Assembly (NCBI GenBank): GCA_963796275.1 | Contig: CAWCKY010000001.1 | Location: 1,152,001 to 1,216,000, forward strand | Length of the DNA: 64,000 nt | Origin: an uncultured Acidobacteriota bacterium | GTDB lineage: Bacteria; Acidobacteriota; Blastocatellia; RBC074 | Direction: 5' to 3' | Shown: positions 31,357-54,600 of the stretch, piece by piece | How positions within the stretch are numbered: the stretch's first letter is position 1 | Layout of the letters: every line of letters begins with the position of its first letter | Translations under genes and position numbers: made by a program | The notes under the pieces: generated by a model | Seen by the model: only the letters and a program-made list of their open reading frames with translations | Told to the model about the DNA's origin: nothing | Databases searched by the model: none

Positions 31357-34300
31357 TTACTCATTCCTCTGATAAAGCTTTTTCAACTCGGCCAAAATCA
31401 CATGCCCTATCTGAGACGCCGGTTCCCGGTGGATCAGCATGTCATTGTGTCGGCACGGGATTGGATTTACCGTAATTTCTCCCGAGATATATGGCCTCCA
31501 GGCTTCTGGCTTCATTCTAGAATCGGATGCTGTAAAGAGTAAGAGATTGCCGTCGTAATGTTGTGGTGTGAAAGTTTCCAAAACAGAATCGGTGTTTTGA
31601 ATCTCTTCGATTATGGCATCAAGTGGGTAGTATTCGCCAATCTCATTATAGAGTTCGATGAGATTCGAAGTGTCCAAAGATTCATCTTCCATGTCATACC
31701 CTAGAAATTGAAATATAGAGGAAAGGATTTGATCGCGAGTTTCACGCACGGCAGGTTGCTGAGTAACTGGTGGATAGGCATCGAGGACGGCAAGCAGCGC
31801 AACCGGTTCGCCTTGTTGCCGAAGGAGGCTAGCAATTGTATGGGCTACATGTCCGCCAAAGGACCAACCGATTAAATTATAGGGTCCGGCGGGTTGAATC
31901 TTGCGGATCTGGTCGATGTAATCAGTAGCTATCTCCACGACTGTTAGGGGTAAGTATCCCGGCTCTGACAAGCGACGTGCTTGCAGCGCATAGATCGGAT
32001 GGTTAGCATCGATATACTGCATCAGCCTGGCGTAGCACCAGCTAACTCCGCCGCCAGGGTGGATGCAAAATAGGGGAGGAAGGCTACCTTGAGATCTGAG
32101 CGGTAGCATGACATCAAATGAATTTCGATCAGTAGGGTGGGACAATATCACTGCCAGGCCCGCCACAGTCGGAGCCTCGAACAGGCTGCGAATCGAGAGT
32201 TCAACCCCGAGCATGGCGCGCACCCGGCTGGCTAGGCGTGCCCCCAACAATGAATGGCCGCCGAGTTCGAAGAAATTGTCATCAATTCCCACCCGCTCCA
32301 GACCCAGCACCTCGGCAAACAATGCGCAGAGTAACTCTTCTTTGGGGTTGCGCGGCGCTCTCCAGATATCTGACGAGACGAACTCCGGTTCGGGCAGGGC
32401 CTTGCGATCCAACTTTCCGTTGGGGGTCAACGGCAGTGCCTCCAACTGGACGATCGTTGCCGGCACCATATAGTCGGGCAGACGTTGGCCTAACTGCTGG
32501 CGCAAGGCGCTGGAGTCAAGGCTGCGTCCCGGCGCTGGCACTACGTAACCAGCCAGTAGTATCTCTCCTGTACGATTCTCGCGCGCCACGACTACTGCCT
32601 GAGCCACCTCCGGCAGCTCGCGCAGCGCCGCCTCGACCTCGCCCGGTTCGATGCGGAAGCCGCGGATCTTGACTTGCTGATCGGCTCGTCCGAGGAACTC
32701 GAGGTTGCCATCGGGGCGCCATCTCGCCAGGTCTCCCGTCCGGTAAATTCGCGTACCAGGCTGCCCGTAAGGATCGGCCACAAATCGCTCGGCGGTCAGG
32801 GCCGGGCGCTTCAGATATCCGCGTGCCATGCCCGCTCCTGCGACGTAGAGCTCTCCTGCGACTCCCACCGGCACGATTTGCAGGTCCTCGTCTAACACGT
32901 ACATGCGCGTATTCCAGATTGGTTGCCCGATGGAAACTCGCTTCTCGGAGATAACTAACGTTTTCGAATCACTCCATGTCACATCTGCCGATACTTCCGA
33001 AGATCCATAGAGGTTTAGTAGCTGTCCCGAAGGCGCGAACTCCGCGAATCGTTGCGCCAGTTCCGGGGATAACCTCTCGCCGCTGCTTACCCAAAGCTTT
33101 ATTTCACTGGGACCTTGATGATTCTCGTAGTACTCCAGCAATACGCGAAGTTGAGAAGGTACAAGCACAAGCCTCGTCACCTTATGGTTAACGAGAATCT
33201 CGGTGAACTGCGTTGGATCCTTCATCACCAAGTCTGGAATGATTACGCACGGTATTCCGCGTAGCAATGGTCCAAATATCTCCCACATCGAGTCGAGGAA
33301 GTTCAGCGAAGTTTTCTGGCAGCAGACCTCATCTTCTCCAAATGGAAATACGTTCCACATCCAGTCGTAGCGGTTGATTGCCCCACGGTGCAACCCTAAT
33401 ACTCCTTTCGGCGGTCCGGTTGAACCTGAAGTATAGATCACATAGGCCAGGTTATCTCCGCATACATCGACTCCGGGATTCTCTGTCGCATCCTTCGCCT
33501 CTGCCTCCACGGTTGCAAGGTTGATTACCTCTAGCGCGCCATCCCCCAGACGCTCGCCCAGCAACGGATTGCTGATTACTATTCTCACTCCGCTATCTTT
33601 CACCATGTAAAGCAAGCGCGATAGCGGATACTCGGGATCAAGCGGCAGATATGCTCCGCCGGCCTTCAGAATCCCCAGGAGGGCGGTTACCATATCTATC
33701 CCGCGCTCCAAACAGACTCCCACCACATCATCCCGCCCCACACCTCGCCCGCGCAGGTAATGCGCCAGGCGATTAGCGCGCAGGTTCAAATCTCGATAGG
33801 TGATCTCCTCGCTCCCACTAACAATTGCCACCGCCCCAGGCGATCTTCGGACCTGCTCCTCAAACAGTTCCACCGCTGTCGTCTCCGGCACCTCCCGCCG
33901 CGTCTGATTCCACTCCTCCAGTATCTGGATGCGCTCCTGCTCTCCCAGCAGGTCGATGCCTGCAATCATCTGTTGGGCATCGCTCACCATCGCCTCCAGC
34001 ACCCGCGCGCAATGCCGCCCCATCTGCTCAATCCTCCAGCGGTCAAAGAGCTCGCGGTTGTAGAGCCACGACGAGCATGATCTCTCCATCTTCTTCCCAG
34101 GCGTACATCTCCAGATCGAAGCGTACTTGCAGCTGGTCTCCCGCCAGCTGCTCTATCTCCAGCCCCTTCATCCGCTCGGCCACCTGCGGCGCATTCTGCA
34201 GGGCAAAAATCACCTGGAAGATGGGCGTCGTGTCCAGACTCCGCTGCGGGGAGAGCTCCTCCACCAGCCGCTCGAAAGGCACATCCTGATGCTCATAGGC

Positions 34301-37300
34301 CTCCAGCGCTACCCGCCGCGCCTCACTCACCAACTCTTCGACGCTCTTCTCTCCATTGACACTCACTCTCATCACCAGCGTGTTGACGAAGAATCCGATC
34401 ATCTCCTCCAACTGCGCCTCCTGCCGGTTGGCGATCGGCGATCCCACCACGATCTCTTCCTGCCCGCTGTAGCGTTCCAGCAGCAGGGCGAAGCCCGCCA
34501 GCAGCGTCATATAGAGAGTCGCCTGTTGGCTCTGGCTGAGGCGCTTCAAGCCATCGACCTGCTGACCGCTCAGGATCATCTGAGAGAATTCGCCCTGGAA
34601 GGTCTGCACCGGTGGTCGCACTCTATCGGTCGGCAACTCGAGCCGCTCGGGAATCCCGGCCAGCTGCTGCTTCCAGTAGGCGAGCTCTGCTTGAAGCCTC
34701 TCCTGCTCCAGCCACTGTCTCTGCCAGAGGGCGAAGTCGGCGTACTGGACGCTCAGCGGCTTGAGCGGATTCTCGCGCCCCTGACAGAAGGCCTCGTAGA
34801 GCTGAGTGAACTCGCGGTTGAAGACTCCCTCCGACCAGCCGTCGGAGACGATGTGGTGCATGGTGCGCAAAAGGATATGATCGCGCTCTCCCAGTTTGAG
34901 CAGATTCACCCGCAGCAGCGGTCCGCGAGCCAGATCGAAGGGGCAGCTCACTTGCTCCCGCAGGCGAGCCGTCACCCGCGTTTGTTGCTCTTGCTCATCC
35001 AGTTGGCTCAAGTCATCCACGGGAATCTCGATCCACAACTCCGGCTCGATGATTTGGATGGGCGCTCCCTCTATCTCGTCAAAGTGTGTGCGCAGAGTCT
35101 CGTGGCGGGAGATGATGGTGTTGATAGTTTGCTCCAGCGCCTGGCGGTGGAGTTCTCCTCTCAGCCGGAGAGCCACAGGCATGTTGTATTCTGTGCTGTT
35201 TTCAGCCAGGCGGTCGAGAAACCAGAGGCGCTGCTGGGCATAGGAGAGGGGCAGACGCTCGGGCCGCTGCTGCTGCACAAGTGGAGGGCGTCCCGTCCCG
35301 GACTCTCTCAGCCGCGAGCTGAGTTGGGCAACAGAGGGCGACTCAAAGAGGGTGCGAATGGCCAGTTCCGCTCCCAGCGCGGCGCGCACTCGGCTGACCA
35401 GGCGCGTTGCCAACAGCGAGTGGCCGCCGAGGTCGAAGAAGTTGTCATCAATTCCCACCCGCTCCAGACCAAGCACCTCGGCGAACAATGAGCAGAGAAT
35501 CTCCTCTTCGGGACTGCGCGGCGCCCTCCAGACGGAGGTCGATATCATCTCCGGCTCGGGCAAGGCCTTGCGATCCAGTTTTCCATTGGGAGTCAACGGC
35601 AGGGCTTGCAACTCGACGATGGCTGCCGGCACCATATAGTCGGGCAGCCGTTGCGACAACTGCTGGCGCAACGCACTGGGGTCAATGCTGCGTCCTGGCG
35701 CTGGCACCACATAGCCGGCCAGCAATTTCCCTCCCATACGATTCTCGCACGCCACCACTACTGCCTGGGCGATCTCCGGCAGCTCGCGCAGCGCCGCCTC
35801 GATCTCGCCCGGCTCGATGCGGAAGCCGCGAATCTTGACCTGGTGGTCAATGCGACCCAGAAAATGAATACTGCCATCTGGCAGGTAGCATCCCAGGTCC
35901 CCTGTCTTATATAGCCTCTGATAGTAAGCATTTCGGTGATCCAGATTTTGCTTTGAAGCTTTAGAACCGTAAAAGCTCCAGACCTCATAATCCTGAACGC
36001 CATCTCTGCTCGCCACAACATATGGCAACCGGCAGATGTTTAATTCGTCTGCGCCAAGCTGATAAAGCATGCTTACTAACGTTTCCTTATCCTGCTCTAG
36101 ACTCTCTCCTGGTGTAATTCGGTTTTGGGTTGATGTGTATGTGATTGGACTTCCAATATCACCGTCGTCTATCGGGACGATAGGTAAGATTGTTTGTATC
36201 GCGAACCGCCCACCTTCTTTCAAGCTCTTAAACAGGTTCACCAGAAAGTTTTTAGGATTATCTAGACGATCAAGCGTTAAGGTCGAGATGACAAAGTCCT
36301 GAGATCTCTCCTCTACTCCGCATTCCTGTGAGAACATTCCTGGAGGTACGTCAACTTTCGCTGCCCGAACATTCAAATTCCTGCTTCTTGCTTTCTGCAC
36401 GAGAAACGGGCACAAATCCAAACCTAGCATCTGCGCTCCCATTTCTGACAATGCTTCAAGCACTTCCGCGTTACCGAAACAGAAATCTATCCCCTTAAGC
36501 CCGGCAAAGGTTTGATAAGGGAAGAGTAGCCTCAGTATATCCTGGTTGATTCCGCACGAGGCATAGCTGTCATTGGCCCCTTCCTGGAAATACCTGATGA
36601 ATCCATTGTAGGCAAACTCATCCCCGCAATAATTATCGATGAATCGTTTCGTGTTATCGATAAGATCGGGATCAAGCCCTTTAACTGACTCCAAAATGCG
36701 CTGGAATGGCGTGCGTTCAGCCGTACTGTTCTTACCATTATGGTCCCACCTCGTAAGATTATTATTGCCTCTGAATCTCTCTAGCATTTCGCGAACACTT
36801 TCTACTGATATGAACCCATGACTAATTTCGCTATGGGAGTAGTGATTAGAAATGAACTTAGCCGCTGTCGCCTGCGGCTGGTTTAGGTAACCTCGCGCTA
36901 TGCCGGCTCCTGTAAGGTATATCTCACCTGCTACCCCTATAGGGACCGGCCTCAATCTCTGGTCCAGAATGTATGACCTGGTATTGTCTATTGGATGGCC
37001 TATCGGCACATATCCCAATCTCTTCACCTTTTCACCTTCCACCTCCCACAAGTGCGAATAGACCGTATACTCAGTCGGCCCATATGCGTTGATGAATGTG
37101 CAGTGATTCGACCATTCCGCCGCCAATTCCACCGGACAACTCTCCCCCACCGAGACGATCGTCAGCCTCTCCGCATCTTCGATCCGCTCTGGATCAAGCT
37201 GCTTGAGTACGGATGGTACGAAGACTGCGACATTGATCCGCTGTCGATTAAGGAACTCCATCAACCTCTGAGGCTCCAGGTCGTCAGGCGCAGAGATGAC

Positions 37301-40300
37301 GAGCGTAGCGCCGTTGAGCAACGCCATAAAGGTTTCGCCGACGGCGCCGTCGAAGTTGTAGGAGAAGAACTGTGAGATACGGGATTGAGAAGATAGGTGG
37401 AAGATGCGGGCTTGCCACTTGGCGAGGTTGACGACACCGTGGTGCTCGACGGCGACACCTTTAGGAGTACCAGTGGAGCCGGAGGTGTAAATCATATACG
37501 CCAGGTTCTCGGCTGCAACACCACTTTTCGGCTCGCTCTCGTTTTGCTCGCTGATCATCTCCCTCTCCTCATCCAGCAACACTGTCCGTCCCCCATGCGC
37601 CGGCAGACGCTGCTCTAACACTTTCTGCGTCAGTACTACTCCGACTCTTGCATCATCCAGCAGATAGCTCAATCTATTCTGCGGTGAGTCCGGATCAAGT
37701 GGCAGATATGCTCCTCCAGTTTTGAGTATCCCCAGCAAACCTACAATCATCTCCACACTGCGTTCCAAACATATACCGACCCGCACTTCCGGCCCCACTC
37801 CGAAACGTTGCAGGTAATGCGCCAGGCGATTAGCGCGCAGGTTCAAATCTCGATAGGTGATCTCCTCGCTCCCACTAACAATTGCTACCGCCCCAGGCGA
37901 TCTTCGGACCTGCTCCTCAAACAGTTCCACCGCTGTCGTCTCCGGCACCTCCCGCCGCGTCTGATTCCACTCCTCCAGCATCTGCTTGCGCTCCTGCTCT
38001 CCCAGCAGGTCGATGCTTGCAATCTTTTGTTGCGCATCTCCCACCATCGCCTTCAGCACCCGCACGCAATGCCGCCCCATCTGCTCAATCCTCCAGCGGT
38101 CAAAGAGCTCGCGGTTGTAGAGCCACGACAGCATGATCTCTCCATCTTCTTCCCAGGCGTACATCTCCAGATCGAAGCGTACTTGCAGCTGGTCTCCCGC
38201 CAGCTGCTCTATCTCCAGCCCCTTCATCCGCTCGGCCACCTGCGGCGCATTCTGCAGGGCAAAAATCACCTGGAAGATGGGCGTCGTGTCCAGACTCCGC
38301 TGCGGGGAGAGCTCCTCCACCAGCCGCTCGAAAGGCACATCCTGATGCTCATAGGCCTCCAGCGCTACCCGCCGCGCCTCACTCACCAACTCCTCGACGC
38401 TCTTCTCTCCATTGACACTCACTCTCATCACCAGCGTGTTGACGAAGAATCCGATCATCTCCTCCAACTGCGCCTCCTGCCGGTTGGCGATCGGCGATCC
38501 CACCACGATCTCTTCCTGCCCGCTGTAGCGTTCCAGCAGCAGGGCGAAGCCCGCCAGCAGCGTCATATAGAGAGTCGCCTGTTGGCTCTGGCTGAGGCGC
38601 TTCAAGCCATCGACCTGCTGACCGCTCAGGATCATCTGAGAGAATTCGCCCTGGAAGGTCTGCACCGGTGGTCGCACTCTATCGGTCGGCAACTCGAGCC
38701 GCTCGGGAATCCCGGCCAGCTGCTGCTTCCAGTAGGCGAGCTCTGCTTGAAGCCTCTCCTGCTCCAGCCACTGTCTCTGCCAGAGGGCGAAGTCGGCGTA
38801 CTGGACGCTCAGCGGCTTGAGCGGATTCTCGCGCCCCTGACAGAAGGCCTCGTAGAGCTGAGTGAACTCGCGGTTGAAGACTCCCTCCGACCAGCCGTCG
38901 GAGACGATGTGGTGCATGGTGCGCAAAAGGATATGATCGCGCTCTCCCAGTTTGAGCAGATTCACCCGCAGCAGCGGTCCGCGAGTCAGATCGAAGGGGC
39001 AGCTCACTTGCTCCCGCAGGCGAGCCGTCACCCGCGTTTGTTGCTCTTGCTCATCCAGTTGGCTCAAGTCATCCACGGGAATCTCGATCCACAACTCCGG
39101 CTCGATTATTTGGATGGGCGCTCCCTCTATCTCGTCAAAGTGTGTGCGCAGAGTCTCGTGGCGGGAGATGATGGTGTTGATAGTTTGCTCCAGCGCCTGG
39201 CGGTGGAGTTCTCCTCTCAGCCGGAGAGCCACAGGCATGTTGTATTCTGTGCTGTTTTCAGCCAGGCGGTCGAGAAACCAGAGGCGCTGCTGGGCATAGG
39301 AGAGGGGCAGACGCCCGGGCCGCTGCTGCTGCACAAGTGGAGGGCGTCCCGTCCCGGACTCTCTCAGCCGCGAGCTGAGTTGGGCAACAGAGGGCGACTC
39401 AAAGAGGGTGCGAATGGCCAGTTCCGCTCCCAGCGCGGCGCGCACTCGGCTGACCAGGCGCGTGGCCAGCAACGAGTGGCCGCCGAGGTCGAAGAAGTTG
39501 TCGTCAATGCCGACCGATTCCAGACCGAGCACCTCGGCGAACAATGAGCAGAGAATCTCCTCCTGTGGTGTTCGGGCAGAGCGATAAGTTTTACCCTGCC
39601 ACTCGGGCTGGGGCAGGGCCTTGCGATCCAGTTTTCCATTGGGAGTCAGCGGCAGTGCTTGTAATTCGACGATGGCTGCCGGCACCATATAGTCGGGCAC
39701 TCGTTGCGCCAGGTGTTGGCGGAATGCGCTGGAGTCAATGTTGCGTCCTGGAGCTGGCACTACGTATCCCACCAGTCGCTTCTCTCCTGGAGTATCCTCG
39801 CGCGCAACCACCACTGCCTGAGCTACCTGCGGAAGCTCGCGCAGCGCCGCCTCGATCTCGCCCGGCTCGATGCGGAAGCCCCGTATCTTCACCTGCTGAT
39901 CGGCCCGCCCGAGGAACTCCAGATTCCCATCGGCCCGCCAGCGCGCCAGGTCTCCCGTCCGGTAGATACGCGTTCCAGGTTCGCCGTATGGGTCAGCCAC
40001 AAAGCGCTCGGCGGTCAAAGCTGTACGCTTCTGATATCCGCGCGCCAATCCTGGCCCAGCGATATAGAGCTCTCCTCCGACTCCCACCGGCGTCGGTCTC
40101 AGACTCCTGTCCAACACGTACACACGTGTGTTGCTGATCGGTTGCCCGATCGGTATCGTCTCTCCTTCTTTGATCTCCTCTCGACAAATTTCTCTAAAAG
40201 TCGCAAAAGTCGTCGTCTCTGTTGGTCCGTAGACGTGCAACAGACGCTCTGGCCCCTCTCGCTTGAGCACCTCCGCCACCCAAACGGGATCATACCTTCT

Positions 40301-42602
40301 CTCCGCCAAATAAAACCTCCCGGCAACCTTTGAATGCCCTCGGTTCGGATCGTGCCACCTGGTTAAATAACGCAGTGGTCAGAAAGATCGTGTTAATCCC
40401 TTGTGTTATCAATGCCTCAGATAGCAACCGAGGTTGCAACAATAGATCGCGACTGATGCAATACAATCGCGCTCCATGCAGTAATGCGCCCCATATCTCA
40501 AAGGTCGCTGCATCAAATGAGATGGTCGATGCCTGAGCTATTACATCGGTCTCTCTAATCTCGACGTAGTTTGTTTGACAAACCAGTCGCACTACCCCCC
40601 GATGCGTAATCTCAATCCCTTTTGGCTCCCCGGTCGATCCGGAAGTATAGATCACATAGGCCAGGTTATTTCCGCATACATCGATTCCGGGATTCTCTGT
40701 CGCATTCTTCGCCTCTGCCTCCACTGTTGCAAGGTTGATTACCTCTAGCGCGCCATCCCCCAGACGCTCGCCCAGCAACGGATTGCTGATTACTACTCTC
40801 ACTCCGCTATCTTTCACCATGTAAAGCAAGCGCGATAGCGGATACTCGGGATCAAGCGGCAGATATGCTCCGCCGGCCTTCAGAATCCCCAGGAGGGCGG
40901 TTACCATATCTATCCCGCGCTCCAAACAGACTCCCACCACATTATCCCGCCCCACACCTCGCCCGCGCAGGTAATGCGCCAGGCGATTAGCGCGCAGGTT
41001 CAAATCTCGATAGGTGATCTCCTCGCTCCCACTAACAATTGCCACCGCCCCAGGCGATCTTCGGACCTGCTCCTCAAACAGTTCCACCGCTGTCGTCTCC
41101 GGCACCTCCCGCCGCGTCTGATTCCACTCCTCCAGTATCTGGATGCGCTCCTGCTCTCCCAGCAGGTCGATGCTTGCAATCATCTGTTGGGCATCGCTCA
41201 CCATCGCCTCCAGCACCCGCACGCAATGCCGCCCCATCTGCTCAATCCTCCAGCGGTCAAAGAGCTCGCGGTTGTAGAGCCACGACAGCATGATCTCTCC
41301 ATCTTCTTCCCAGGCGTACATCTCCAGATCGAAGCGTACTTGCAGCTGGTCTCCCGCCAGCTGCTCTATCTCCAGCCCCTTCATCCGCTCGGCCACCTGC
41401 GGCGCATTCTGCAGGGCAAAAATCACCTGGAAGATGGGCGTCGTGTCCAGACTCCGCTGCGGGGAGAGCTCCTCCACCAGCCGCTCGAAAGGCACATCCT
41501 GATGCTCATAGGCCTCCAGCGCTACCCGCCGCGCCTCACTCACCAACTCCTCGACGCTCTTCTCTCCATTGACCCTCATCCTCATCACCAGCGTGTTGAC
41601 GAAGAATCCGATCATCTCCTCCAACTGCGCCTCCTGACGGTTGGCGATCGGCGATCCCACCACGATCTCTTCCTGCCCGCTGTAGCGTTCCAGCAGCAGG
41701 GCGAAGCCCGCCAGCAGCGTCATATAGAGAGTCGCCTGTTGGCTCTGGCTGAGGCGTTTCAAGCCATCGACCTGCTGACCGCTCAGGATCATCTGAGAGA
41801 TTTCGCTCTGGAAGGTCTGCACTGGTGGTCGCACTCTATCGGTCGGCAACTCGAGCCGCTCGGGAATCCCGGCCAGCTGCTGCTTCCAGTAGGCGAGCTC
41901 TGCTTGAAGCCTCTCCTGCTCCAGCCACTGTCTCTGCCAGAGGGCGAAGTCGGCGTACTGGACGCTCAGCGGCTTGAGCGGATTCTCGCGCCCCTGACAG
42001 AAGGCCTCGTAGAGCTGCGTGAACTCGTGGTTGAAGACTCCCTCCGACCAGCCGTCGGAGACGATGTGGTGCATGGTGCGCAAAAGGATATGATCGCGCT
42101 CTCCCAGTTTGAGCAGATTCACCCGCAGCAGCGGTCCGCGAGTCAGATCGAAGGGGCAGCTCACTTGCTCCCGCAGGCGAGCCGTCACCCGCGTTTGTTG
42201 CTCTTGCTCATCCAGTTGGCTCAAGTCATCCACGGGAATCTCGATCCACAACTCCGGCTCGATGATTTGGATGGGCGCTCCCTCTATCTCGTCAAAGTGT
42301 GTGCGCAGAGTCTCGTGGCGGGAGATGATGGTGTTGATAGTTTGCTCCAGCGCCTGGCGGTGGAGTTCTCCTCTCAGCCGGAGAGCCACAGGCATGTTGT
42401 ATTCGCTGCTGTTTCCAGCCAGGCGGTCGAGAAACCAGAGGCGCTGCTGGGCATAGGAGAGGGGTAGGTGCTGCGGACGAGGCAACGAACCAATTCGCTG
42501 CAGATTATTGACTTCAATAGTTTCACCACGGAGTCGCTTCTCCAGGAGTAGCTGCTTGGTAGGTGAAAGCTTTGTCTTGCGCTCTAGCAAAGAACGTTTC
42601 AT
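31357..42602 (-). CDS. NRPS gene 2, three modules: C-A(Ile/Val)-T / C-A[MT-interrupted]-T / C-A(beta-Ala)-T-TE; split by 1-nt insertions at about 40292 and 34073
   Basis: Three ORFs (40290-42602, 34043-40309, 31357-34089) join seamlessly by comparison with paralogous modules. Motifs: HHIVSDG x3, YTSGSTG x3, GGHSL x3 and TE GWSFGG. Confidence 0.93.
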
Positions 42603-45600
42603 GCTCGGTAGTTCAGCTCCGTGTTGTTATCAATGTTATTTAACGCAGTCGCTCACAGTTTAATGAATGCCTGCTGCCTCTGGGCTCTGTTCGATTTCAT
42701 CCAATATTCTCTCTTCGATGATGTCTGCTAACTGTTCAGCGGTTGGCGATCCAAATAGAGTACGGATGGAGAGTTCAACTCCCAGCGTGGCGCGTATCCG
42801 GCTGGCTAGGCGCGTTGCCAACAGCGAGTGGCCCCCGAGTTCGAAGAAGTTGTCGTCAATGCCGACCGATTCCAGACCGAGCACCTCGGCGAACAATGAG
42901 CAGAGAATCTCCTCCTGTGGTGTTCGGGCAGAGCGATAAGCTTTACCCTGCCACTCAGGCTGGGGCAGGGCATTGCGATCCAGCTTCCCGTTCGGCGTCA
43001 GCGGCAGCGCTTCCATCTCGACGATCGCCGCCGGCACCATATAGTCGGGCAACCGTTGCGCCAGGTGCTGGCGGAATGCGCTAGAGTCAATGCTGCGCCC
43101 TGGGGCTGGCACTACGTATCCCACCAGGCGCTTCTCCCCCGGAATATCTGCGCGCGCAACCACCACTGCCTGAGCCACTTCCGGCAGCTCGCGCAGGGCA
43201 GACTCGATCTCGCCCGGCTCGATGCGGAAGCCGCGAATCTTGATCTGCTGATCGGCCCGTCCCAGGAACTCCAGATTTCCATCACTCCGCCATCTCGCAA
43301 GGTCTCCCGTCCGGTACATTCTCGCTCCCGCCTCTTTACTATAGGGATTGGCGACGAAGCGCTCTGCGCTTAAATCCGCCCGCTTCAGGTATCCGCGTGC
43401 AAGTCCTTCGCCTGCGATGTACAGCTCGCCACTTACCCCAATCGGCACCACGTTCAGATTTGAATCGAGAAGATAGCATGTTGTGTTGGCTATCGGATGG
43501 CCCAGTGATACTGAGCTTGTCACCGAAGTTACGCGCATCGCGGTCGACCAGATGGTCGTCTCTGTAGGCCCATACAGATTGTAAACAGAGCCATGCCAGC
43601 CAAGCATCCGCTCCGCCAGCTCGGGCGGAAAAGCTTCGCCACCACACAACATCTTCAGGCCCTGATCTCCTGGCCAGCCGCTGTCAGCCAATATCCTCCA
43701 GGTTGCAGGCGTCGCTTGCATGACGGTTGCACCTGATTGGCGCAATTCCTCTGCCAGCTGATGTCCGTCGGCAGCTACTTCGCGGCTGACGATTATGCAC
43801 TTCGCGCCAATGATCAGAGGTAGGTACAATTCCAGCCCGGCAATGTCGAAGGATAAAGAGGTAAGCGCAAGTAATATTTCATCGGTGCGGAAATCGAGCT
43901 CCTGACTCATCGATGCCAGGAAATTTGTGCAAGCCTGATGAGAAATCATTACCCCCTTGGGTCGGCCCGTAGAACCGGAGGTATAGATAACATAGGCTGG
44001 ATTTTCTGACCTCAGAGGCCGGATTTGCCGCTGGTCTGTTGGATTGCAGGTCGGGCTCCGATCTAATGCCGCAACCATCCCCGGATGATCGAGCAGCAGT
44101 TGGCGCTGATTCTCAGGCAAGCGCCCACCAGTCTCCCGCATCGTGATCACGCAGGCGGGCTCGGCATCCTCAAGCATCAAGGCGAGGCGCTCGGCCGGAT
44201 AGTCCGGGTCGATCGGCAGATAGGCCGCTCCTGCCTTCAAAATACCCAGCAGCGCGACGATCATCTCCGGCGACCGCGGCAGGGCCAGCGCCACCACATC
44301 CTCCGGCCCAACTCCCTCACCGATCAGCAGGTGCGCCAATCGATTGGCTCGCTCGTTCAACTCTCGGTAGGTCAGCTCCTGCTCCTGATAGATCACCGCC
44401 ACCGCTCCGGGCGATCTTCGGACCTGCTCTTCAAACAGCTCTACCAGCGTCGCCTCTGGCACCTCTCGCCGTGTCTGGTTCCATTCCTCCAGTATCTGCC
44501 CGCGCTCCTCGGCTGTGAGCATATCTAATCGCCCGATCCGCTCTTTCGGATCAGCCAACACCGCCTCCAACACCCGCAGATAGTGGCGTCCCATCTGCTC
44601 CATCCTCCACCCATCAAACAAATCCCTATTGTAGAGCCACGCGATCTGAATCTCTCCCTCGCTCTCCCATGCGTGCACCTCCAGGTCGAAGCGCACTCGC
44701 AGCTCGTCTCCCATTACCTCCTCCACCTCCAGCCCCTTCACCCGCTCGACCACTTGCGGCGCATTCTGCAGGGCGAAGACCACCTGGTAGATGGGCGTCG
44801 TGTTCAGACTCCGCTGCGGAGAGAGCTCCTCCACCAGCCGCTCGAAGGGCACGTCCTGATGCTCATAGGCCTCCAGCGCAACTCGCCTCACCTCTCCCAT
44901 CAGCTCCTCGAAGCTCATCTCCCCATTGACCCTCATCCTCATCACCAGCGTGTTGACGAAGAATCCGATCATCTCCTCCAACTGCGCCTCCTGCCGGTTG
45001 GCGATCGGCGATCCCACCACGATCTCTTCCTGCCCGCTGTAGCGGCTCAGCACTACTCCGAAGGCGCCGAGCATGCTCATATAGAGGGTCGCCTGACCAG
45101 TCTGGCTCACCATCCGCAATCCCGCCGTCTGCTCCCGGTTCAACTTCATCTGACAGAGCTCGGCTTCATAGGTCTGCACCGGAGGCCGCACTCTATCGGT
45201 CGGTAACTCCAGTCGCTCGGGAATCCCGGCCAACTGCTCTTTCCAGTAGGCGAGCCCTCCTTGAAGCCCCTCCTGCTCCAGCCACTGCCTCTGCCACAAG
45301 GCGAAGTCGGCATACTGCACCGCCAGGGGCCGCAGCGGATTCTCTCTCCCCTCGCAGAACGCCTGGTAGAGCAGGGTCAACTCCTGATTGAAGACCCCCT
45401 CCGACCAACCGTCAGATGCGATGTGATGCATCGTCCTGATCAGGATGTGATCGCGCTCGGCCAGCTTGAGCAGCTTGATTCGCAGCAGCGGCCCGCGCCC
45501 CAGGTCAAAGGGCTGCCCGCCTTCCTCCCGCAGCGCGTCAATCACTCGAGCTTCTCGTTGCTTCCGGTGGAGCCCGCCCAGGTCTTCCACCCGAAGCTCG

Positions 45601-48600
45601 ATCCGCATCTCCGGCTCGATGACCTGCACTGGCTCTCCCTCTACCTCAGCAAAGTGTGTGCGCAGGCTCTCGTGGCGCGAGATGATGGTATTGATGGTCT
45701 GCTCCAGCGCCTTCAGGTCGAGCTCGCCGCGCAGCCGCAGCGCGCTGGGCATGTTGTACTCGGTGCTGGTCTCTCCCAGCCGATCGAGAAACCAGAGGCG
45801 CTGCTGGGCATAGGAGAGGGGCAGACGCCCGGGCCGCTGCTGCGGCGCAAGCGGAGCGCGCCCTGTCTTAGACTCTCGCAGCCGCGGGCTGAGCTGGGCA
45901 ACAGAGGGCGATTCAAAGAGGGTGCGAATGGCCAGTTCCGCTCCCAGCGTGGCGCGCACTCGGCTGACCAGTCGGGTGGCCAGCAGCGAGTGGCCGCCGA
46001 GTTCAAAGAAGTTGTCGTCAATGCCCACCCGCTCCAGACCGAGCACCTCGGCGAACAACGAGCAGAGAATCTCCTCGTGCGGGCTGCGCGGAGCCTTCCA
46101 GACAGAGGTTGAGATCAACTCCGGTTCCGGCAGGGCCTTGCGGTCCAATTTTCCATTGGGTGTCAGCGGCAGCGCTTGTAACTCGACGATGGCTGCCGGC
46201 ACCATATAGTCGGGCAGGCGCCGGGCTAATTGCTGCCGTACAGAGGTGGAATCAATGCTCCGGCCGGGTGCGGGCACCAGATAGCCGGTCAGTCGCTTCT
46301 CTCCCGGAATATCCTCGCGCGCCACCACCACTGCCTGAGCCACTTCCGGCAGCTCGCGCAGGGCAGACTCGATCTCGCCCGGCTCGATGCGGAAGCCGCG
46401 AATCTTGACCTGCTGATCGGCTCGTCCCAGAAACTCCAGGTTCCCGTCGGCCCGCCAGCGCGCCAGGTCTCCCGTCCGGTACATCCGCATTCCAGGTTCG
46501 CCGTATGGATCACCCACAAAGCGATCGGCGGTCAGGGCCGGGCGCTTGAGATATCCGCGCGCCAACCCTGCTCCTGCGATATAGAGCTCTCCTGCCACTC
46601 CCACCGGAACAGGTCCTAAACCACTATCCAAAACATACACACGCGTGTTGCAGATCGGTTGCCCTATAGGTGGCTCCCCAACTCCTAATAGTGGCCCACT
46701 CGTCGTCGCACACACTGTTGTCTCCGTCGGGCCATACGCATTGATCATCCGGCATTTCTCCGACCATCGCGCCGCCACTTCTGCAGGGCATGCCTCTCCA
46801 GCAACAATCAGGGTGTTAAGTTGTATAACCTGATCTTCTGCGAAATCGGCAACCACCACCGGCGGTAGCGTTGCGTGGGTCACCCTATGCTTGTGCATTG
46901 CCTTCACCAATAATTCACCTCTGCGCTCTTCCTCCCCTAAAAGCGTCAGCTTAGCGCCAGATAATAGACCCATCACGATTTCATAGAACGATGAGTCGAA
47001 GCTCAATGAAGCGAACTGTAGAACGCGGGACTCGGATGTAACACCGAATTGATGGATGCCCGCCGCTGAAAGGCTGGGAATGCCTCTGTGGGTGACTACA
47101 ACGCCTTTGGACCTACCAGTAGAGCCGGATGTGTAGATGATATAGGCCGGGTTGTGCGGCCGCAGAGACCGGCCCGGATTGCCGCAGGGTAATTGCTCTA
47201 TCGCCTTGGGCAGTTCCGCTTGATCGAGCAATAGGCAGCCCGTCCATACGGGCAAGTGTGCCATTATCTCACCGGTTGTGATGAGGCAAGCTGGCTCGGC
47301 GTCCTCCATCATGAAGGTGAGGCGCTCGGCTGGATACTCGGCGTCGATGGGCAGATAGGCCGCTCCTGCCTTCAAAATACCCAGCAGCGCAACGATCATC
47401 TCCGGCGACCGCGGCAGGGCCAGCGCCACCACATCCTCCGGCCCAACTCCCTCACCGATCAGCAGGTGCGCCAATCGATTGGCTCGCTCGTTCAACTCTC
47501 GGTAGGTCAGCTCCTGCTCCTGATAGATCACCGCCACCGCTCCGGGCGATCTTCGGACCTGCTCTTCAAACAGCTCTACCAGCGTCGCCTCTGGCATCTC
47601 TCGCCGTGTCTGGTTCCATTCCTCCAGTATCTGCCTGCGCTCCTCGGCTGTGAGCATATCTAATCGCCCGATCCGCTCTTTCGGATCAGCCAACACCGCC
47701 TCCAACACCCGCAGATAGTGGCGTCCCATCTGCTCCATCCTCCACCCATCAAACAAATCCCTATTGTAGAGCCACGCGATCTGAATCTCTCCCTCGCTCT
47801 CCCATGCGTGCACCTCCAGGTCGAAGCGCACTCGCAGCTCGTCTCCCATTACCTCCTCCACCTCCAGCCCCTTCACCCGCTCGGCCACCTGCGGCGCATT
47901 CTGCAAGGCGAAGACCACCTGGTAGATGGGCGTCGTGTCCAGGCTCCGCTGCGGAGTGAGCTCCTCCACCAGCCGTTCGAAGGGCACGTCCTGATGCTCA
48001 TAGGCCTCCAGCGCAACTCGCCTCACCTCTCCCATCAGCTCCTCGAAGCTCATCTCCCCATTGACCCTCATCCTCATCACCAGCGTGTTGACGAAGAATC
48101 CGATCATCTCCTCCAACTGCGCCTCCTGCCGGTTGGCGATCGGCGATCCCACCACGATCTCTTCCTGCCCGCTGTAGCGGCTCAGCACTACTCCGAAGGC
48201 GCCGAGCATGCTCATATAGAGGGTCGCCTGACCAGTCTGGCTCACCATCCGCAATCCCGCCGTCTGCTCCCGGTTCAACTTCATCTGACAGAGCTCGGCT
48301 TCATAGGTCTGCACCGGAGGCCGCACTCTATCGGTCGGTAACTCCAGTCGCTCGGGAATCCCGGCTAACTGCTCCTTCCAGTAGGCGAGCCCTTCTTGAA
48401 GGCCCTCCTGCTCCAGCCATTGCCTCTGCCACAAGGCGAAGTCGGCATACTGCACCGCCAGGGGCCGCAGCGGATTCTCTCTCCCCTCGCAGAACGCCTG
48501 GTAGAGCAGGGTCAACTCCTGATTGAAGACCCCCTCCGACCAACCGTCAGATGCGATGTGATGCATCGTCCTGATCAGGATGTGATCGCGCTCGGCCAGC

Positions 48601-51600
48601 TTAAGCAGCTTGATTCGCAGCAGCGGCCCGCGCCCCAGGTCAAAGGGCTGCCCGCCTTCCTCCCGCAGCGCGTCAATCACTCGAGCTTCTCGTTGCTTCC
48701 GGTGGAGCCCGCCCAGGTCTTCCACCCGAAGCTCGATCCGCATCTCCGGCTCGATGACCTGCACTGGCTCTCCCTCTACCTCAGCAAAGTGTGTGCGCAG
48801 GCTCTCGTGGCGCGAGATGATGGTATTGATGGTCTGCTCCAGCGCCTTCAGGTCGAGCTCGCCGCGCAGCCGCAGCGCGCTAGGCATGTTGTACTCGGTG
48901 CTGGTCTCTCCCAGCCGGTCGAGAAACCAGAGGCGCTGCTGGGCATAGGAGAGGGGCAGACGCCCGGGCCGCTGCTGCGGCGCAAGCGGAGCGCGCCCTG
49001 TCTTAGACTCTCGCAGCCGCGGGCTGAGCTGGGCAACAGAGGGCGATTCAAAGAGGGTGCGAATGGCCAGTTCCGCTCCCAGCGTGGCGCGCACTCGGCT
49101 GACCAGTCGGGTGGCCAGCAGCGAGTGGCCGCCGAGTTCAAAGAAGTTGTCGTCAATGCCCACCCGCTCCAGACCGAGCACCTCGGCGAACAACGAGCAG
49201 AGAATCTCCTCGTGCGGGCTGCGCGGAGCCTTCCAGACAGAGGTTGAGATCAACTCCGGTTCCGGCAGGGCCTTGCGGTCCAATTTTCCATTGGGAGTCA
49301 GCGGCAGCGCCTCCAGCTCGACCATCGCCGCCGGCACCATATAGTCGGGCAGGCGCCGGGCTAATTGCTGTCGCACAGAGGTGAAATCAATGTTCCGGCC
49401 GGGTGCGGGCACCACATAGCCGGCCAGTCGCTTCTCTCCCGGAGTATCCTCGCGCGCCACCACCACTGCCTGAGCCACTTCCGGCAGCTCGCGCAGCGCC
49501 GCCTCGATCTCGCCCGGCTCGATGCGGAAGCCGCGAATCTTGACCTGCTGATCGGCTCGTCCCAGAAACTCCAGGTTCCCGTCGGCCCGCCAGCGCGCCA
49601 GGTCTCCCGTCCGGTACATCCGCATTCCGGGTTCGCCGTATGGATCACCCACAAAGCGATCGGCGGTCAGGGCCGGGCGCTTGAGATATCCGCGCGCCAA
49701 TCCTGCCCCCGCGATATAGAGCTCTCCTACGACTCCCACCGGCGTCAGTTTGAGACTCCCGTCCAACACGTACACGCGCGAGTTACTGATCGCCCCTCCG
49801 ATCGGTACATCTCTGCCATCGCCTCGCTCCAATAAAGCATAGGTCGAGTATGTTGTATCTTCCGTCGGCCCGTACAGGTTGAATACCTTCCGCACTTGCT
49901 CTAGTTCATATATTTCCTCAGCTAACCTTCGCCTCAGTGCCTCGCCAGCCAGATTCACCGTCCGTACTCCTTCCGGCAGACCGCCTATCCTCAACAGTTC
50001 TGTTATTGCTGAAGGAACAGTGTTAATTAGTCTCACTTGCTTGGCCGACGGCGTATTGGGCAACTCCAATACGTTCTCTACCAGGATCACCGTCCCACCG
50101 CAGCTGAGTGGAACAAATATTTCGAAGACCGATAAATCAAAACAGATCGAGGTCGAAGCAAGTACTCCTGCTAGATCCTGTGTCTCAAACACCTCTGCTG
50201 CCCAGCACAGCAATTCTGCCGCACTGTGATGCTCGATCTGTGTCCCTTTAGGCCTGCCGGTTGAGCCGGAAGTATAGATAACATAGGCTGGGTTCTTAGG
50301 TCTGAGTTGGCTTCGACGATCACCATCTCCTGGATTTCCAGATAGACTTTGCGCCAAAGCTTCAACCGCATGGGGATGATCCAGGAGAAGGATGCCAGAT
50401 CTCACCGGTAAGCGGTCTGCTACCTTACTGGCGGTCAGCATATAGGCAGGCTCGGCATCCTCGAGCATCAAGGCCAGGCGATCGGCTGGATACTCAGTGT
50501 CGATGGGCAGATAGGCCGCTCCTGCTTTCAAAATACCCAGCAGCGAGACGATCATCTCCGGCGACCGCGGCAGGGCCAGCGCCACCACATCCTCCGGCCC
50601 AACTCCCTCGCCGATCAGCAGGTGCGCCAATCGATTGGCTCGCTCGTTCAACTCTCGGTAGGTCAGCTCCTGCTCCTGATAGATCACCGCCACCGCTCCG
50701 GGCGATCTTCGGACCTGCTCTTCAAATAGCTCTACCAGCGTCGCCTGCGGTATCTCGCGCGACGTCTCGTTCCACTCCTCCAGTATCTGCCTGCGCTCCT
50801 CGGCTGTGAGCATATCTAATCGCCCGATTCGCTCCTTCGGATCTGCCAACACCGCCTCCAACACCCGCAGATAGTGGCGTCCCATCTGCTCTATCTTCCA
50901 GCGATCGAAGAGCTCCCGGTTGTAGAGCCAGTAGATCGCCAGCTCTCCTTTTTCTTCCCAGACGTGCACCTCCAGGTCACAGTGGACCTGCAGTTGAGCT
51001 CCCATCACCAGCTCTACCTCCAGCCCCTTCATTCGCTCGGCCACCTGCGGCGCATTCTGCAGGGCGAAGACCACCTGGAAGATGGGCGTCGTGTCCAGGC
51101 TCCGCTGCGGGGAGAGCTCCTCCACCAGCCGTTCGAAGGGCACGTCCTGATGCTCATAGGCCTCCAGCGCAACTCGCCTCACCTCTCCCATCAGCTCCTC
51201 GAAGCTCATCTCCCCATTGACCCTCATCCTCATCACCAGCGTGTTGACGAAGAATCCGATCATCTCCTCCAACTGCGCCTCCTGCCGGTTGGCGATCGGC
51301 GATCCCACCACGATCTCTTCCTGCCCGCTGTAGCGGCTCAGCACTACTCCGAAGGCGCCGAGCATGCTCATATAGAGGGTCGCCTGACCAGTCTGGCTCA
51401 CCATCCGCAATCCCGCCGTCTGCTCCCGGTTCAACTTCATCTGACAGAGCTCGGCTTCATAGGTCTGCACCGGAGGCCGCACTCTATCGGTCGGTAACTC
51501 CAGTCGCTCGGGAATCCCGGCCAACTGCTCCTTCCAGTAGGCGAGCCCTTCTTGAAGGCCCTCCTGCTCCAGCCATTGCCTCTGCCACAAGGCGAAGTCG

Positions 51601-54600
51601 GCATACTGCACCGCCAGGGGCCGCAGCGGATTCTCTCTCCCCTCGCAGAACGCCTGGTAGAGCAGGGTCAACTCCTGATTGAAGACCCCCTCCGACCAAC
51701 CGTCAGATGCGATGTGATGCATCGTCCTGATCAGGATGTGATCGCGCTCGGCCAGCTTAAGCAGCTTGATTCGCAGCAGCGGCCCGCGCCCCAGGTCAAA
51801 GGGCTGCCCGCCTTCCTCCCGCAGCGCGTCCATCACTCGAGCTTCTCGTTGCTCCCGGTGGAGCCCGCCCAGGTCTTCCACCCGAAGCTCGATCCGCATC
51901 TCCGGCTCGATGACCTGCACTGGCTCTCCCTCTACCTCAGCAAAGTGTGTGCGCAGGCTCTCGTGGCGCGAGATGATGGTATTGATGGTCTGCTCCAGCG
52001 CCTTCAGGTCGAGCTCCCCGCGCAGCCGCAGCGCGCCGGGCAGGTTGTACTCGGTGCTGGTCTCTCCCAGCCGGTCGAGAAACCAGAGGCGCTGCTGGGC
52101 GTAGGAGAGGGGCAGACGCCCGGGCCGCTGCTGCGGCGCAAGCGGAGCGCGCCCTGTCTCAGACTCTTGCAGCCGCGGGCTGAGCTGGGCAACAGATGGC
52201 GATTCAAAGAGGGTGCGAATGGCCAGTTCCGCTCCCAGCGTGGCGCGCACTCGACTGACCAGTCGGGTGGCCAGCAGCGAGTGGCCGCCGAGTTCAAAGA
52301 AGTTGTCGTCAATGCCCATCCGCTCCAGACCGAGCACCTCGGCGAACAACGAGCAGAGAATCTCCTCGTGCGGGCTGCGCGGCGCCCTCCAGACAGAGGT
52401 TGAGATCAACTCTGGTTCCGGCAGGGCCTTGCGGTCCAATTTTCCATTGGGAGTCAGCGGCAGCGCCTCCAGCTCGACCATCGCCACCGGCACCATATAG
52501 TCGGGCAGGCGCCGGGCTAATTGCTGCCGCACAGAGGTGAAATCAATGCTTCGGCCGGGTGCGGGCACCACATAGCCGGCCAGTCGCTTCTCTCCCGGAG
52601 TATCCTCGCGCGCCACCACCACTGCCTGAGCCACTTCCGGCAGCTCGCGCAGCGCCGCCTCGATCTCGCCCGGCTCGATGCGGAAGCCGCGAATCTTGAC
52701 CTGCTGATCGGCTCGTCCCAGAAACTCCAGGTTCCCGTCGGCCCGCCAGCGCGCCAGGTCTCCCGTCCGGTACATCCGCATTCCAGGTTCGCCGTATGGA
52801 TCACCCACAAAGCGATCGGCGGTCAGGGCCGGGCGCTTGAGATATCCGCGCGCCAACCCCGCCCCCGCGATATAGAGCTCTCCTGCCACTCCCACCGGCA
52901 CCGGCTGCAGGTTCCCGTCCAACACGTACATACGCGTGTTGCTGATTGGTCTTCCAATAAGGACTGACTCCAGTCTCAAACCTTCACTACATTCCCAGTA
53001 GCTCGCATCGATCGTCGCTTCTGTCGGCCCATAGAGATTGATTAAACTCGCTCCGCTCACCGATTGGAACTTCTCTACCAAATCCCATGTCAATGCTTCA
53101 CCGCCGCAGAACAATCGCTTCAGCTTCGTGCATCTCTCCCATCCTTCTTCCTCCACCATTGACTGCAGCAGCTTCGGCACTACCTGCACGATATTGACCT
53201 CTCGCTCTGCTATCTCCGACACTAAATAGGCGCTGTCACGATGACCGCCAGGTTTAGCTATGACAAGCTGTGCCCCAACCAGCAACGGTGCGTAAAATTC
53301 CCATACCGAGGCATCAAAACTAAACGGAGTTTTTTGTAGGACGCGGTCAGACTCGCTCAAGGCAAAGGACTCCTGCATCCAGAGCATATGGTTGTGGAGT
53401 GCGCCGTGTGAGACCATCACTCCCTTTGGCTCTCCCGTCGAGCCGGAGGTATAGAGAACACAGGCTATATTCTCAGAGGCTACTTTGGTTAGCGGTGACG
53501 ACTCAGTATTAGAACGGAGAGCTGTTAAATCGGTATCAATGAAAATCAAATTACACTGAGAACTACCTAAGCGCTCACGTAAATATTGCTGAGTGAGAAT
53601 AATTGATACTTGTGCATTAACAAGCATAAATAACAGCCGGTCCAGTGGGTACTCTACGTCCAGCGGCAGATAAGCCGCTCCCGCCTTCAGAATCCCCAAC
53701 ATTCCCACCACCAACTCTACACTTCGCTCAAGACATAGACCCACACACACCTCAGGTCCGACACCCATCGCTTGTAAAAGATGCGCCAACTGATTGGCTC
53801 GCTCATTCAATTCACCATAGGTCAGTTCCTGCTCCTGGTAGATCACCGCCACCGCCCCGGGTGACCTTCGCACCTGCTCTTCAAACAGTTCCACCACTGT
53901 CGTTTCCCGCACCTCTCGCCGCGTTTGGTTCCACTCCTCCAGTATCTGAATGCGATCCTGCTCTCCCAGCAGGTTGATGCCTGCAATCTTTCGTTGCGCA
54001 TCGCTCACCATCGCCTCCAGCACCCGCAGATAGTGGCGTCCCATCTGCTCCATCCTCCAGCGATCGAAGAGCTCCCGGTTGTAGAGCCAGTAGATCGCAA
54101 GCTCTCCTTTTTCTTCCCAGACGTGCACCTCCAGGTCACAGTGGACCTGCAGTTGAGCTCCCATCACCAGCTCTACCTCCAGCCCCTTCATCCGCTCGGC
54201 CACCAGCGGCGCATTCTGCAGGGCGAAGACCACCTGGAAGACGGGCGTCGTGTTCAGACTCCGCTGCGGGGAGAGCTCCTCCACCAGCCGCTCGAAAGGC
54301 ACATCCTGATGCTCATAGGCCTCCAGCGCTATGCGCCGCGCCTCACTCACCAACTCCTCGACGCTCTTCTCTCCATTGACCCTCATCCTCATCACCAGCG
54401 TGTTGACGAAGAATCCGATCATCTCCTCCAACTGCGCCTCCTGCCGGTTGGCGATCGGCGATCCCACCACGATCTCTTCCTGCCCGCTGTAGCGTTCCAG
54501 CAGCAGGGCGAAGCCCGCCAGCAGCGTCATATAGAGAGTCGCCTGTTGGCTCTGGCTGAGGCGTTTCAAGCCATCGACCTGCTGACCGCTCAGGATCATC

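Follow-up and report, generated by a model that had tools for sequence, protein, structure and literature searches.

The stretch analysed here (the window) is 64,000 nucleotides of DNA from an uncultured Acidobacteriota bacterium (contig CAWCKY010000001.1, positions 1,152,001 to 1,216,000 of the forward strand) and carries a nonribosomal peptide synthetase (NRPS) of ten modules. On its motifs and their spacing, the ninth module is a genuine family 6 interrupted adenylation (A) domain, in which a type VI methyltransferase (M) domain sits between core motifs a6 and a7 to give the order C-A(a1–a6)-M-A(a7–a10)-T, where C is the condensation domain and T the carrier domain. The layout was already catalogued in 2020; new here are a substrate pocket common to the whole family, a METTL9-like fold with a conserved Asp-Arg pair, and the boundaries of the cassette. 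The explanation we favour, and to which as a whole we give slightly better than even weight, is that in this lipopeptide-type NRPS the fixed pocket of the interrupted A domain loads a bulky residue on the T domain, and the METTL9-related M domain methylates a heteroatom of its side chain.

The NRPS occupies 31357..63998 on the minus strand, and an open reading frame (ORF) and Pfam scan identifies a starter C domain, ten A domains and a terminal thioesterase (TE). Its N-terminal 295 aa lie beyond the window (in L030:2-886) and start with a condensation domain. Within the window it is divided among four ORFs:

42660-63998, minus strand, NRPS ORF
40290-42602, minus strand, NRPS ORF
34043-40309, minus strand, NRPS ORF
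31357-34089, minus strand, NRPS ORF

In module 9 the distance from the Gly of a6 (GxARGY) to the Tyr of a7 (Y[RK][TS]GD) is 331 residues (window 36904 to 35911), whereas in the other nine of the ten A domains it is 29–30 residues, so that the insert is about 302 aa long. All ten A-domain core motifs are intact in module 9. An earlier note, made from the letters alone, had placed a class I methyltransferase between a6 and a7 of this module, and the 331-residue gap together with the intact motifs shows that this observation was correct; Pfam matches and an AlphaFold2 model agree with it. The span given in that note (35890-37500) covers a7, the insert and the a3–a6 part of the A core. The module is organized as follows:

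36884..37921, minus strand, N-terminal part of the A domain (a1–a6), Pfam AMP-binding, residues 797-1142 of P0001
37808-37861, minus strand, core motif a1
37691-37726, minus strand, core motif a2
37457-37504, minus strand, core motif a3
37334-37354, minus strand, core motif a4 (FDGAVGE)
37070-37090, minus strand, core motif a5
36884-36928, minus strand, core motif a6
35912..36883, minus strand, a6-to-a7 stretch (P0004, 324 aa) containing the type VI M domain of about 302 aa, METTL9/DREV-like, from motif spacing, Pfam and fold
35561..35911, minus strand, C-terminal part of the A domain, from Pfam and motifs
35891-35911, minus strand, core motif a7 (YKTGDLG)
35798-35857, minus strand, core motif a8
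35561-35647, minus strand, core motifs a9–a10, with the a10 Lys in NGKLDRK
35312..35500, minus strand, carrier (T) domain, Pfam PP-binding, residues 1604-1666 of P0001, with the GGHSL serine motif within 35408-35440

The a6-to-a7 stretch scores above the Pfam gathering thresholds for Methyltransf_23 (42.9 vs 27 bits), Methyltransf_11 (36.1 vs 21.2) and Methyltransf_25 (29.5 vs 27). With a 36-row alignment as input, AlphaFold2 models the insert at a predicted local distance difference test score (pLDDT) of 91.5 and a predicted template modelling score (pTM) of 0.90. The model begins with four helices (28-44, 60-66, 72-85 and 89-103) and continues as an alternating strand/helix core, in agreement with the helical N-terminal part and class I fold described earlier. 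As modelled, the insert is a class I S-adenosylmethionine (SAM) methyltransferase, with these motifs:

36467..36493, minus strand, motif I (SAM loop) GIDFCFGNA, with Cys for the first Gly and Ala for the third; the family consensus is G(V/I)DFGFGNGE
36398..36439, minus strand, family motif ii, including the post-I acidic residue (D or E in all 71 sequences)
36266..36298, minus strand, family motif iii, ending in Asp205-Arg206 of P0004 (36266-36271), a pair invariant in 71/71 and aligned to METTL9 D213-R214
36182..36211, minus strand, family motif iv, aligned to METTL9 'GRVILALVLP'

Residue conservation was counted over an alignment of 71 M domains. Motif I had been described as degenerate, and two of its glycines are indeed replaced, in a combination unique to this sequence (1/71). 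The single changes are largely variation within the family: the first Gly is Cys in eight of the 71 domains, including P0006, P0009 and P0010, which are the nearest neighbours of the query, and the third is Ala in 13. The homologue from the same genus reads GIDFGFGNAE. The SAM-site residues D133, G137, G154 and D156 are retained, as are the other invariant or nearly invariant positions (R97, Y98, E101, Y107, D178, L204, D205, R206, P234, Y249, T250 and Y299), and an acidic pair, D239-D240, is conserved. We consider the M domain probably active.

Family 6 was defined by Lundy, Mori & Garneau-Tsodikova (RSC Chem Biol 2020; PMC8341866) as having an M domain ('type VI') between a6 and a7; here and below, statements drawn from this and the other cited papers refer to the parts of their text that were available. 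The survey counts 14 family 6 sequences in four phyla, with a type VI M domain of 300±4 aa, and three of family 7, in which the type VI domain is accompanied by a second M domain at a2–a3 (type V, a backbone N-methyltransferase); with 536 sequences in family 1, the a6–a7 site is as uncommon as the earlier note had it. At about 302 aa the insert fits the published size, and it matches exactly the published motifs ii (GxxxxGd(D/E)xxPxx(V/I)), iii (DF(A/V)d(S/T)x(L/M)xLD(R/Q)) and iv (G(R/K)F(A/S)(I/L)(Q/G)TdLP). Compared with the published motif i, G(V/A/T)(D/E)(F/I/L)GxGxG, the sequence GIDFCFGNA differs at position 2 (I), at the first Gly (C) and at the third Gly (A); the survey mentions two members in which one motif i Gly is replaced by A or C. 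It further states that the M-domain lineages have no common motifs beyond the SAM loop, suggests O-methylation of hydroxylated aromatics for type VI and, in the part available, gives no family 6 representative or natural product as known. The insertion sites named in the available part of a 2024 review (PMC11355689) are a8–a9 and a2–a3. The arrangement is thus not unexplored but already catalogued as family 6 with a type VI domain, although its chemistry is indeed uncharacterised in the literature.

The family is broad and scattered across phyla. A phmmer search with the insert against 1.84 billion representative proteins gives 125 matches at E<=1e-3, of which 68 reach E<=1e-30; the best is 69% identical. 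Among 68 matches examined, 44 have the M domain between an a6 and an a7 motif that could be recognised, with 312-354 aa from one to the other, and three more have a near motif missed by the pattern; the remaining 21 comprise free-standing proteins and fragments. Scanning species-representative genomes with 12 closer sequences as queries identifies 21 loci in Acidobacteriota, a cyanobacterium, Alpha-, Beta- and Gammaproteobacteria and Bacteroidota. The source genome has a single copy of the M domain, and among 40 relatives a true homologue is present in one (same genus, 67% identity), with weak generic-methyltransferase matches in six others. A FastTree phylogeny of 86 sequences places the query inside the clade of embedded M domains, beside P0006, P0009 and P0010. 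The possibility raised earlier, that the domain would cluster tightly with a characterised a6–a7 family, therefore holds as regards the clade, which is the catalogued family 6, and fails as regards its characterisation.

Several homologues depart from this pattern. Free-standing bacterial proteins of ~260-350 aa (P0074, P0077, P0080 and P0083-P0109) carry the family-invariant residues RY..EG, LDR, TLLP, DDG and YTP and form clades outside the NRPS-embedded domains in the 86-sequence tree; a single-protein scan of metagenome contigs for their genomic context found no relative. The closest homologue, P0006 (69% identity in M), has a degenerate a5 (NVYRPVGY vs NxYGPTE) and an off-pattern pocket (DGCFVVVAY), and may be a decayed or poorly sequenced copy. 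In Rugamonas sp. CCM 8940 (L010, 9773-11032) the M-domain match lies within a 420-aa open frame with overlapping frames on either side and no long NRPS ORF, and this gene may be frameshifted or split.

The pocket code of module 9, read from the A-core alignment using GrsA numbering, is DGGVVVAVY, or DGGVVVAVYK with the a10 Lys (NGKLDRK), just as first written. It is not peculiar to module 9 but a hallmark of the whole family: D[GA]GV[VI]V[AG][VI]Y occurs in 41 of the 46 family A domains, though their M domains are only 31-69% identical, and in none of the eight sibling modules compared. The pocket has Gly or Ala at 236, Gly at 239, a valine lining and Tyr at 331, and such a wide, valine-lined pocket with Tyr at 331 fits a bulky uncharged side chain. 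The earlier statement that the pocket has no assignment stands, with nothing relevant to the code in the searchable literature, and the neighbours of the A core in the PDB (LgrA, GrsA-PheA, Txo, McyA/B, TycA and ApnA A1) do not decide the substrate. Because the M domain is tied to one fixed pocket, its chemistry would be expected on that side chain and not on the backbone.

The structural neighbours of the M domain point to METTL9. In a Foldseek search of the PDB, ranks 1-10 are all METTL9 or the Ostreococcus METTL9-like enzyme (E 1.1e-14 to 6.6e-12), followed by CouO (E 1.6e-10). VIA-align, a structure search independent of Foldseek, gives the following values (rmsd, root-mean-square deviation):

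METTL9, 7y9c_A: Z 19.3, rmsd 3.6, 244 residues aligned
METTL9-like, 8bvi_A: Z 18.6, rmsd 4.1, 242 residues aligned
3e23_A (third row): Z 17.0, rmsd 2.6, 189 residues aligned
UbiG: Z 15.9, rmsd 3.0, 175 residues aligned
MfnG (Tyr O-methyltransferase): Z 14.4, rmsd 4.6, 204 residues aligned

Coverage of the N-terminal helices (model range 12-309/310) is confined to the METTL9 rows. Six of the top eight VIA-align rows are N-methyltransferases of N-heterocycles, with rows 3-8 tied within 1 Z unit. The sequence identity between METTL9 and the M domain is only 14-16%, and Pfam DREV is matched by 17 of the 36 members of alignment A1 at E<=1 (best E 2.3e-7). In a profile-to-PDB alignment the family '..LDR..P..LL..N' and 'TLLP' are aligned to METTL9 'LLDRCDQPLTLLKD' and 'LVLP', and the family stretch ending in 'grfaiqTLLPivpeDD' is aligned with the METTL9 stretch 'iSCLnLLDRCDQPLTLLKD...GRVILALVLPFHPYVE'. 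In METTL9, catalysis requires D213, which hydrogen-bonds the His ring, and binding requires R214 (PMC10308197); the residues aligned to them, D205-R206, are invariant across the M domains (71/71). On the modelled fold we regard the M domain as a distant relative of METTL9, lying outside PF05219, that would work like METTL9. METTL9-like sequences are reported throughout eukaryotes in a 2025 paper (PMC12269839), the available part of which does not mention bacteria, and a literature search for a link between METTL9/DREV and NRPSs, judged from titles and abstracts, yields only incidental co-occurrence.

A more specific proposal can be put forward tentatively, as a possibility well short of even: type VI M domains would be a bacterial METTL9/DREV branch, captured by NRPSs with a dedicated A core and N-methylating a T-bound heteroaromatic side chain rather than a phenol oxygen (e.g. 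to give N-pi-methyl-histidine or a methylated indole). The conserved pocket would then mark a building block without predictor assignment.

The same structural comparison bears on the chemistry suggested by Lundy et al., in which type VI is a UbiG-like O-methyltransferase acting on a hydroxylated aromatic supplied by oxygenases or a polyketide synthase (PKS). That view came from CDD matches and neighbouring PKS and oxidoreductase genes (PMC8341866), and NCBIfam UbiG and BioC do match weakly here (E 1.9e-4 and 2.7e-5, far below cut-offs). Oxygenases are also present at related loci, including a 2-oxoglutarate-dependent (2OG)/PhyH gene (L002), TauD (L015), a CmlA-like gene (L013) and a luciferase-like gene (L008). 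However, the fold is nearer to METTL9 (Z 19.3, 244 residues aligned) than to UbiG (Z 15.9, 175) or MfnG (Z 14.4), and a Pfam search of the ORFs in 31 kb downstream (at least 110 aa) and ~19 kb upstream (at least 150 aa) of the NRPS finds no oxygenase, PKS or other tailoring gene. Tailoring genes vary between the related loci, whereas the A pocket is constant; this variation, together with the absence of a tailoring gene beside the NRPS, makes a precursor needing prior hydroxylation unlikely here, and we consider the suggestion as a whole quite unlikely. Plain O-methylation of Tyr is counted within the favoured explanation and not under this one.

Alternatively, the M domain could methylate the alpha-amino group of the backbone, as an N-methyltransferase occupying a third insertion site. 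In an elongation module such as module 9 mono-N-methylation is possible, and N-methyltransferases (METTL9, OvoM/OvsM, Rv0560c and toxoflavin N1-methyltransferase) are among the top eight VIA-align rows; the conserved D239-D240 could hold the ammonium group. However, such an enzyme would need no fixed pocket, yet 41 of 46 family members carry one code. The a8–a9 N-methyltransferases, for their part, combine with many A-domain specificities. Family 7 also has a separate type V backbone N-methyltransferase (a2–a3) beside its type VI domain (PMC8341866), and backbone methylation by the M domain of module 9 seems to us improbable.

The A core and M domain together form a block that differs from the rest of the NRPS:

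35870..37810, minus strand, mosaic (imported) block of a2–a7 plus M, from GC content, identity to sibling modules and the same-genus relative

GC content is 0.43-0.50 over 35900-37100 and 0.55-0.65 in the flanks, and GC content at third codon positions (GC3) is 0.44-0.56 in the insert vs 0.74-0.84 in the flanking domains. In 60-nt windows, identity to the DNA of sibling modules 8 and 10 stands at 59/60 above ~37860 and at 53/60 over 37801-37860, drops to roughly 26-75% from 37800 to 35871, and is 42-60 of 60 below ~35810. The same-genus relative (G001) matches the window only at 37801-36851 and 36704-35994, with 74-75% identity. The GC values confirm the AT-richness described earlier. The block-limited identity and the confinement of the G001 match to the block indicate that a2–a7 plus M behaves as a recombination cassette, support the import proposed in the earlier note, and suggest from sequence comparison that an A-core plus M unit moves between assembly lines. 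In G001 itself (L032, G001:C682, 6661-8477) homology begins at the cassette boundary (window 37801), inside an otherwise unrelated NRPS. Compared with the same-genus homologue, the ratio of nonsynonymous to synonymous substitution rates (dN/dS) is ~0.13 for the insert (dN 0.219, dS 1.63) and ~0.14 for the A core, values that are rough because dS is near saturation (~1.6). The M domain is thus under purifying selection and constrained like its host.

A block of this kind might instead be an assembly chimera, with the insert no part of a real gene. The source genome was assembled from a soil metagenome in 7 contigs, its contamination is estimated at 5.2%, the GC content of the block differs from that of its flanks, and neither block junction is bridged by the public contigs compared. 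However, the reading frame is continuous through both junctions, contigs from run X1 are identical to the window (0 differences) over 36969-37216 and 37227-37636, the same in-frame architecture and pocket are present in 44 of the 68 homologues examined, and 21 loci in named genomes of several phyla have the architecture too. We regard a chimera as very improbable indeed.

Elsewhere in the last three modules the NRPS is interrupted by two single-base frameshifts:

40292, minus strand, one base more than in the intact paralogous copy of module 3, splitting the module 8 A domain; not in a homopolymer
34073, minus strand, one base more than in the intact paralogous copy, the module 8 C domain, splitting the module 10 C domain; not in a homopolymer

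Assembly error is plausible in a 7-contig soil-metagenome assembly. The public sequencing runs that match the window are four soil metagenomes, the best with 0.32 of the sampled words, and include no RNA run. No window-identical public contig spans 34073 or 40292, such absent cover being no evidence either way, and G001, whose homology to the window is confined to the imported block, is uninformative on the frameshifts. A further split gene in the window encodes a Ser/Thr kinase with PEGA and FGE-sulfatase domains (26481-28835 and 28672-29088, minus strand); one of its two overlapping ORFs matches Pkinase profile positions 1-71 and the next matches 76-257, which points to assembly indel errors and not to decay specific to the NRPS.

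The C domains of modules 8, 9 and 10 (34100-35300, 38000-39400 and 41150-42500) are nearly identical (96-99% in a 250-nt sample), the two C domains of P0001 differing by one residue by eye, and the a6–a7 stretches of modules 4-6 are identical to one another. These near-identities indicate recent module duplication or gene conversion and constitute an assembly hazard. About 13-15 kb upstream of the NRPS start is a sigma-54 activator with AAA+ and HTH_8 domains (L030:13217-15901, plus strand), the N-terminal region of which matches Trp_halogenase (E 9.9e-10), an unusual sensor domain.

The frameshifts and motif I raise the question of whether the M domain is catalytically dead, either as a structural relic or as a repurposed insert like the PchE epimerase, in an NRPS that may be decaying as a whole. 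Motif I (DFCFGNA) has lost two of three glycines in a combination seen in 1/71, two frameshifts fall in the last three modules, and the PchE 'inserted epimerase domain' is a precedent for a non-methylating insert (PMC8807600). However, each glycine change occurs alone in other members (8/71 and 13/71), with the Cys common to the clade of P0006, P0009 and P0010, and all other invariant residues are retained. The insert is an uninterrupted open frame with a dN/dS (~0.13) the same as that of the A core, and the split kinase points to assembly errors rather than NRPS decay. A dead M domain is in our view unlikely.

In the explanation we favour, the A core and M domain would travel together as one cassette. 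The A pocket would be specific for a single amino acid, bulky, uncharged and probably aromatic or heteroaromatic, which would be loaded on T, and the M domain, a SAM-dependent class I enzyme, would then methylate a side-chain heteroatom of the T-bound residue, with Asp205-Arg206 (the METTL9 D213-R214 equivalent) holding or deprotonating the nucleophile. Module 10, with its beta-Ala-like pocket, would receive the methylated residue, and release of the peptide would fall to the TE. The A pocket of module 10 (31357-34089) reads LDWVVSLAD, with Leu replacing the usual Asp235; it resembles beta-alanine-type codes, and the peptide may end in a beta-amino acid. The M domain would be active, would act on the T-bound residue by analogy with TioS and TioN, and would target the side chain; the other interrupted A domains methylate only a T-bound substrate (PMC11355689). 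That an unusual, carrier-bound residue is methylated on its side chain, as proposed in the earlier note, is a reasonable inference.

Several points count against this explanation. The substrate is unassigned: the 9- and 10-letter pocket codes have no match in the literature searched, and shorter fragments have none related to NRPSs among the papers listed. No characterised a6–a7 M domain was found in the literature after the 2020 survey. His-activating A domains carry acidic or polar pocket residues, and the pocket of module 9 has no residue of this type, so that the A domain gives no support to METTL9-like chemistry on His. In sequence comparison, generic methyltransferases (3ccf, UbiG, PMT and OvoM) score as high as METTL9, and the query protein does not reach the Pfam DREV (PF05219) cut-off (11.8 vs 26 bits). 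The paired replacement of the first Gly by Cys and the third by Ala is found in the query only, and with one of the three motif I glycines left SAM binding could be weakened. Finally, the two frameshifts mean that the NRPS may not be expressed as one assembly line.

Family 6 is the sole catalogued class of A–M fusion without a known substrate, product or structure, and this locus adds a member to it along with several handles. The M domain is paired with the same invariant specificity code in different phyla, in a high-confidence model it stands next to METTL9 and shows a conserved Asp-Arg pair open to mutation, and the block of a2–a7 plus M moves as a unit between assembly lines, which suits engineering. 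If ring N-methylation is correct, it would be a new NRPS tailoring reaction and would provide METTL9 with a bacterial relative.

Comparison with known systems places module 9 closest to family 6 and type VI (PMC8341866), with which it shares the a6–a7 site, the insert size, motifs ii–iv, the C-A-T module and a distribution over scattered phyla. It differs in having two motif i glycines replaced, where the available text mentions two sequences with one replaced, and in that the paper proposes O-methylation of hydroxylated aromatics, whereas this cluster has no hydroxylase and the modelled fold is METTL9-like.

The METTL9/DREV protein-histidine N-pi-methyltransferases (PDB 7y9c, 8gze and 8bvi; PF05219) match the M domain best in structure, its N-terminal helical extension included, and share the 'LDR..P..LL' and 'LP' motifs with the conserved Asp-Arg pair. 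However, METTL9 is a free-standing enzyme, described across eukaryotes, that acts on HxH protein motifs, whereas the M domain is fused inside a bacterial A domain with a pocket that does not look His-specific, is 14-16% identical and falls below the DREV cut-off.

Interrupted A domains of families 1-5 (a8–a9 and a2–a3; TioS, KtzH and TioN) likewise have a class I SAM methyltransferase spliced into the A domain to form a bifunctional adenylating and methylating unit. In module 9 the insert lies in the A core and not in the A sub-domain or at a2–a3, the M domain is of another lineage, and there is one fixed A pocket. The insert of PchE (PMC8807600) is also of methyltransferase fold, within an A domain, and has a degenerate SAM motif, but it is at a8–a9, whereas the M domain of module 9 keeps the SAM-contacting acidic residues and the central Gly and is constrained as in canonical members.

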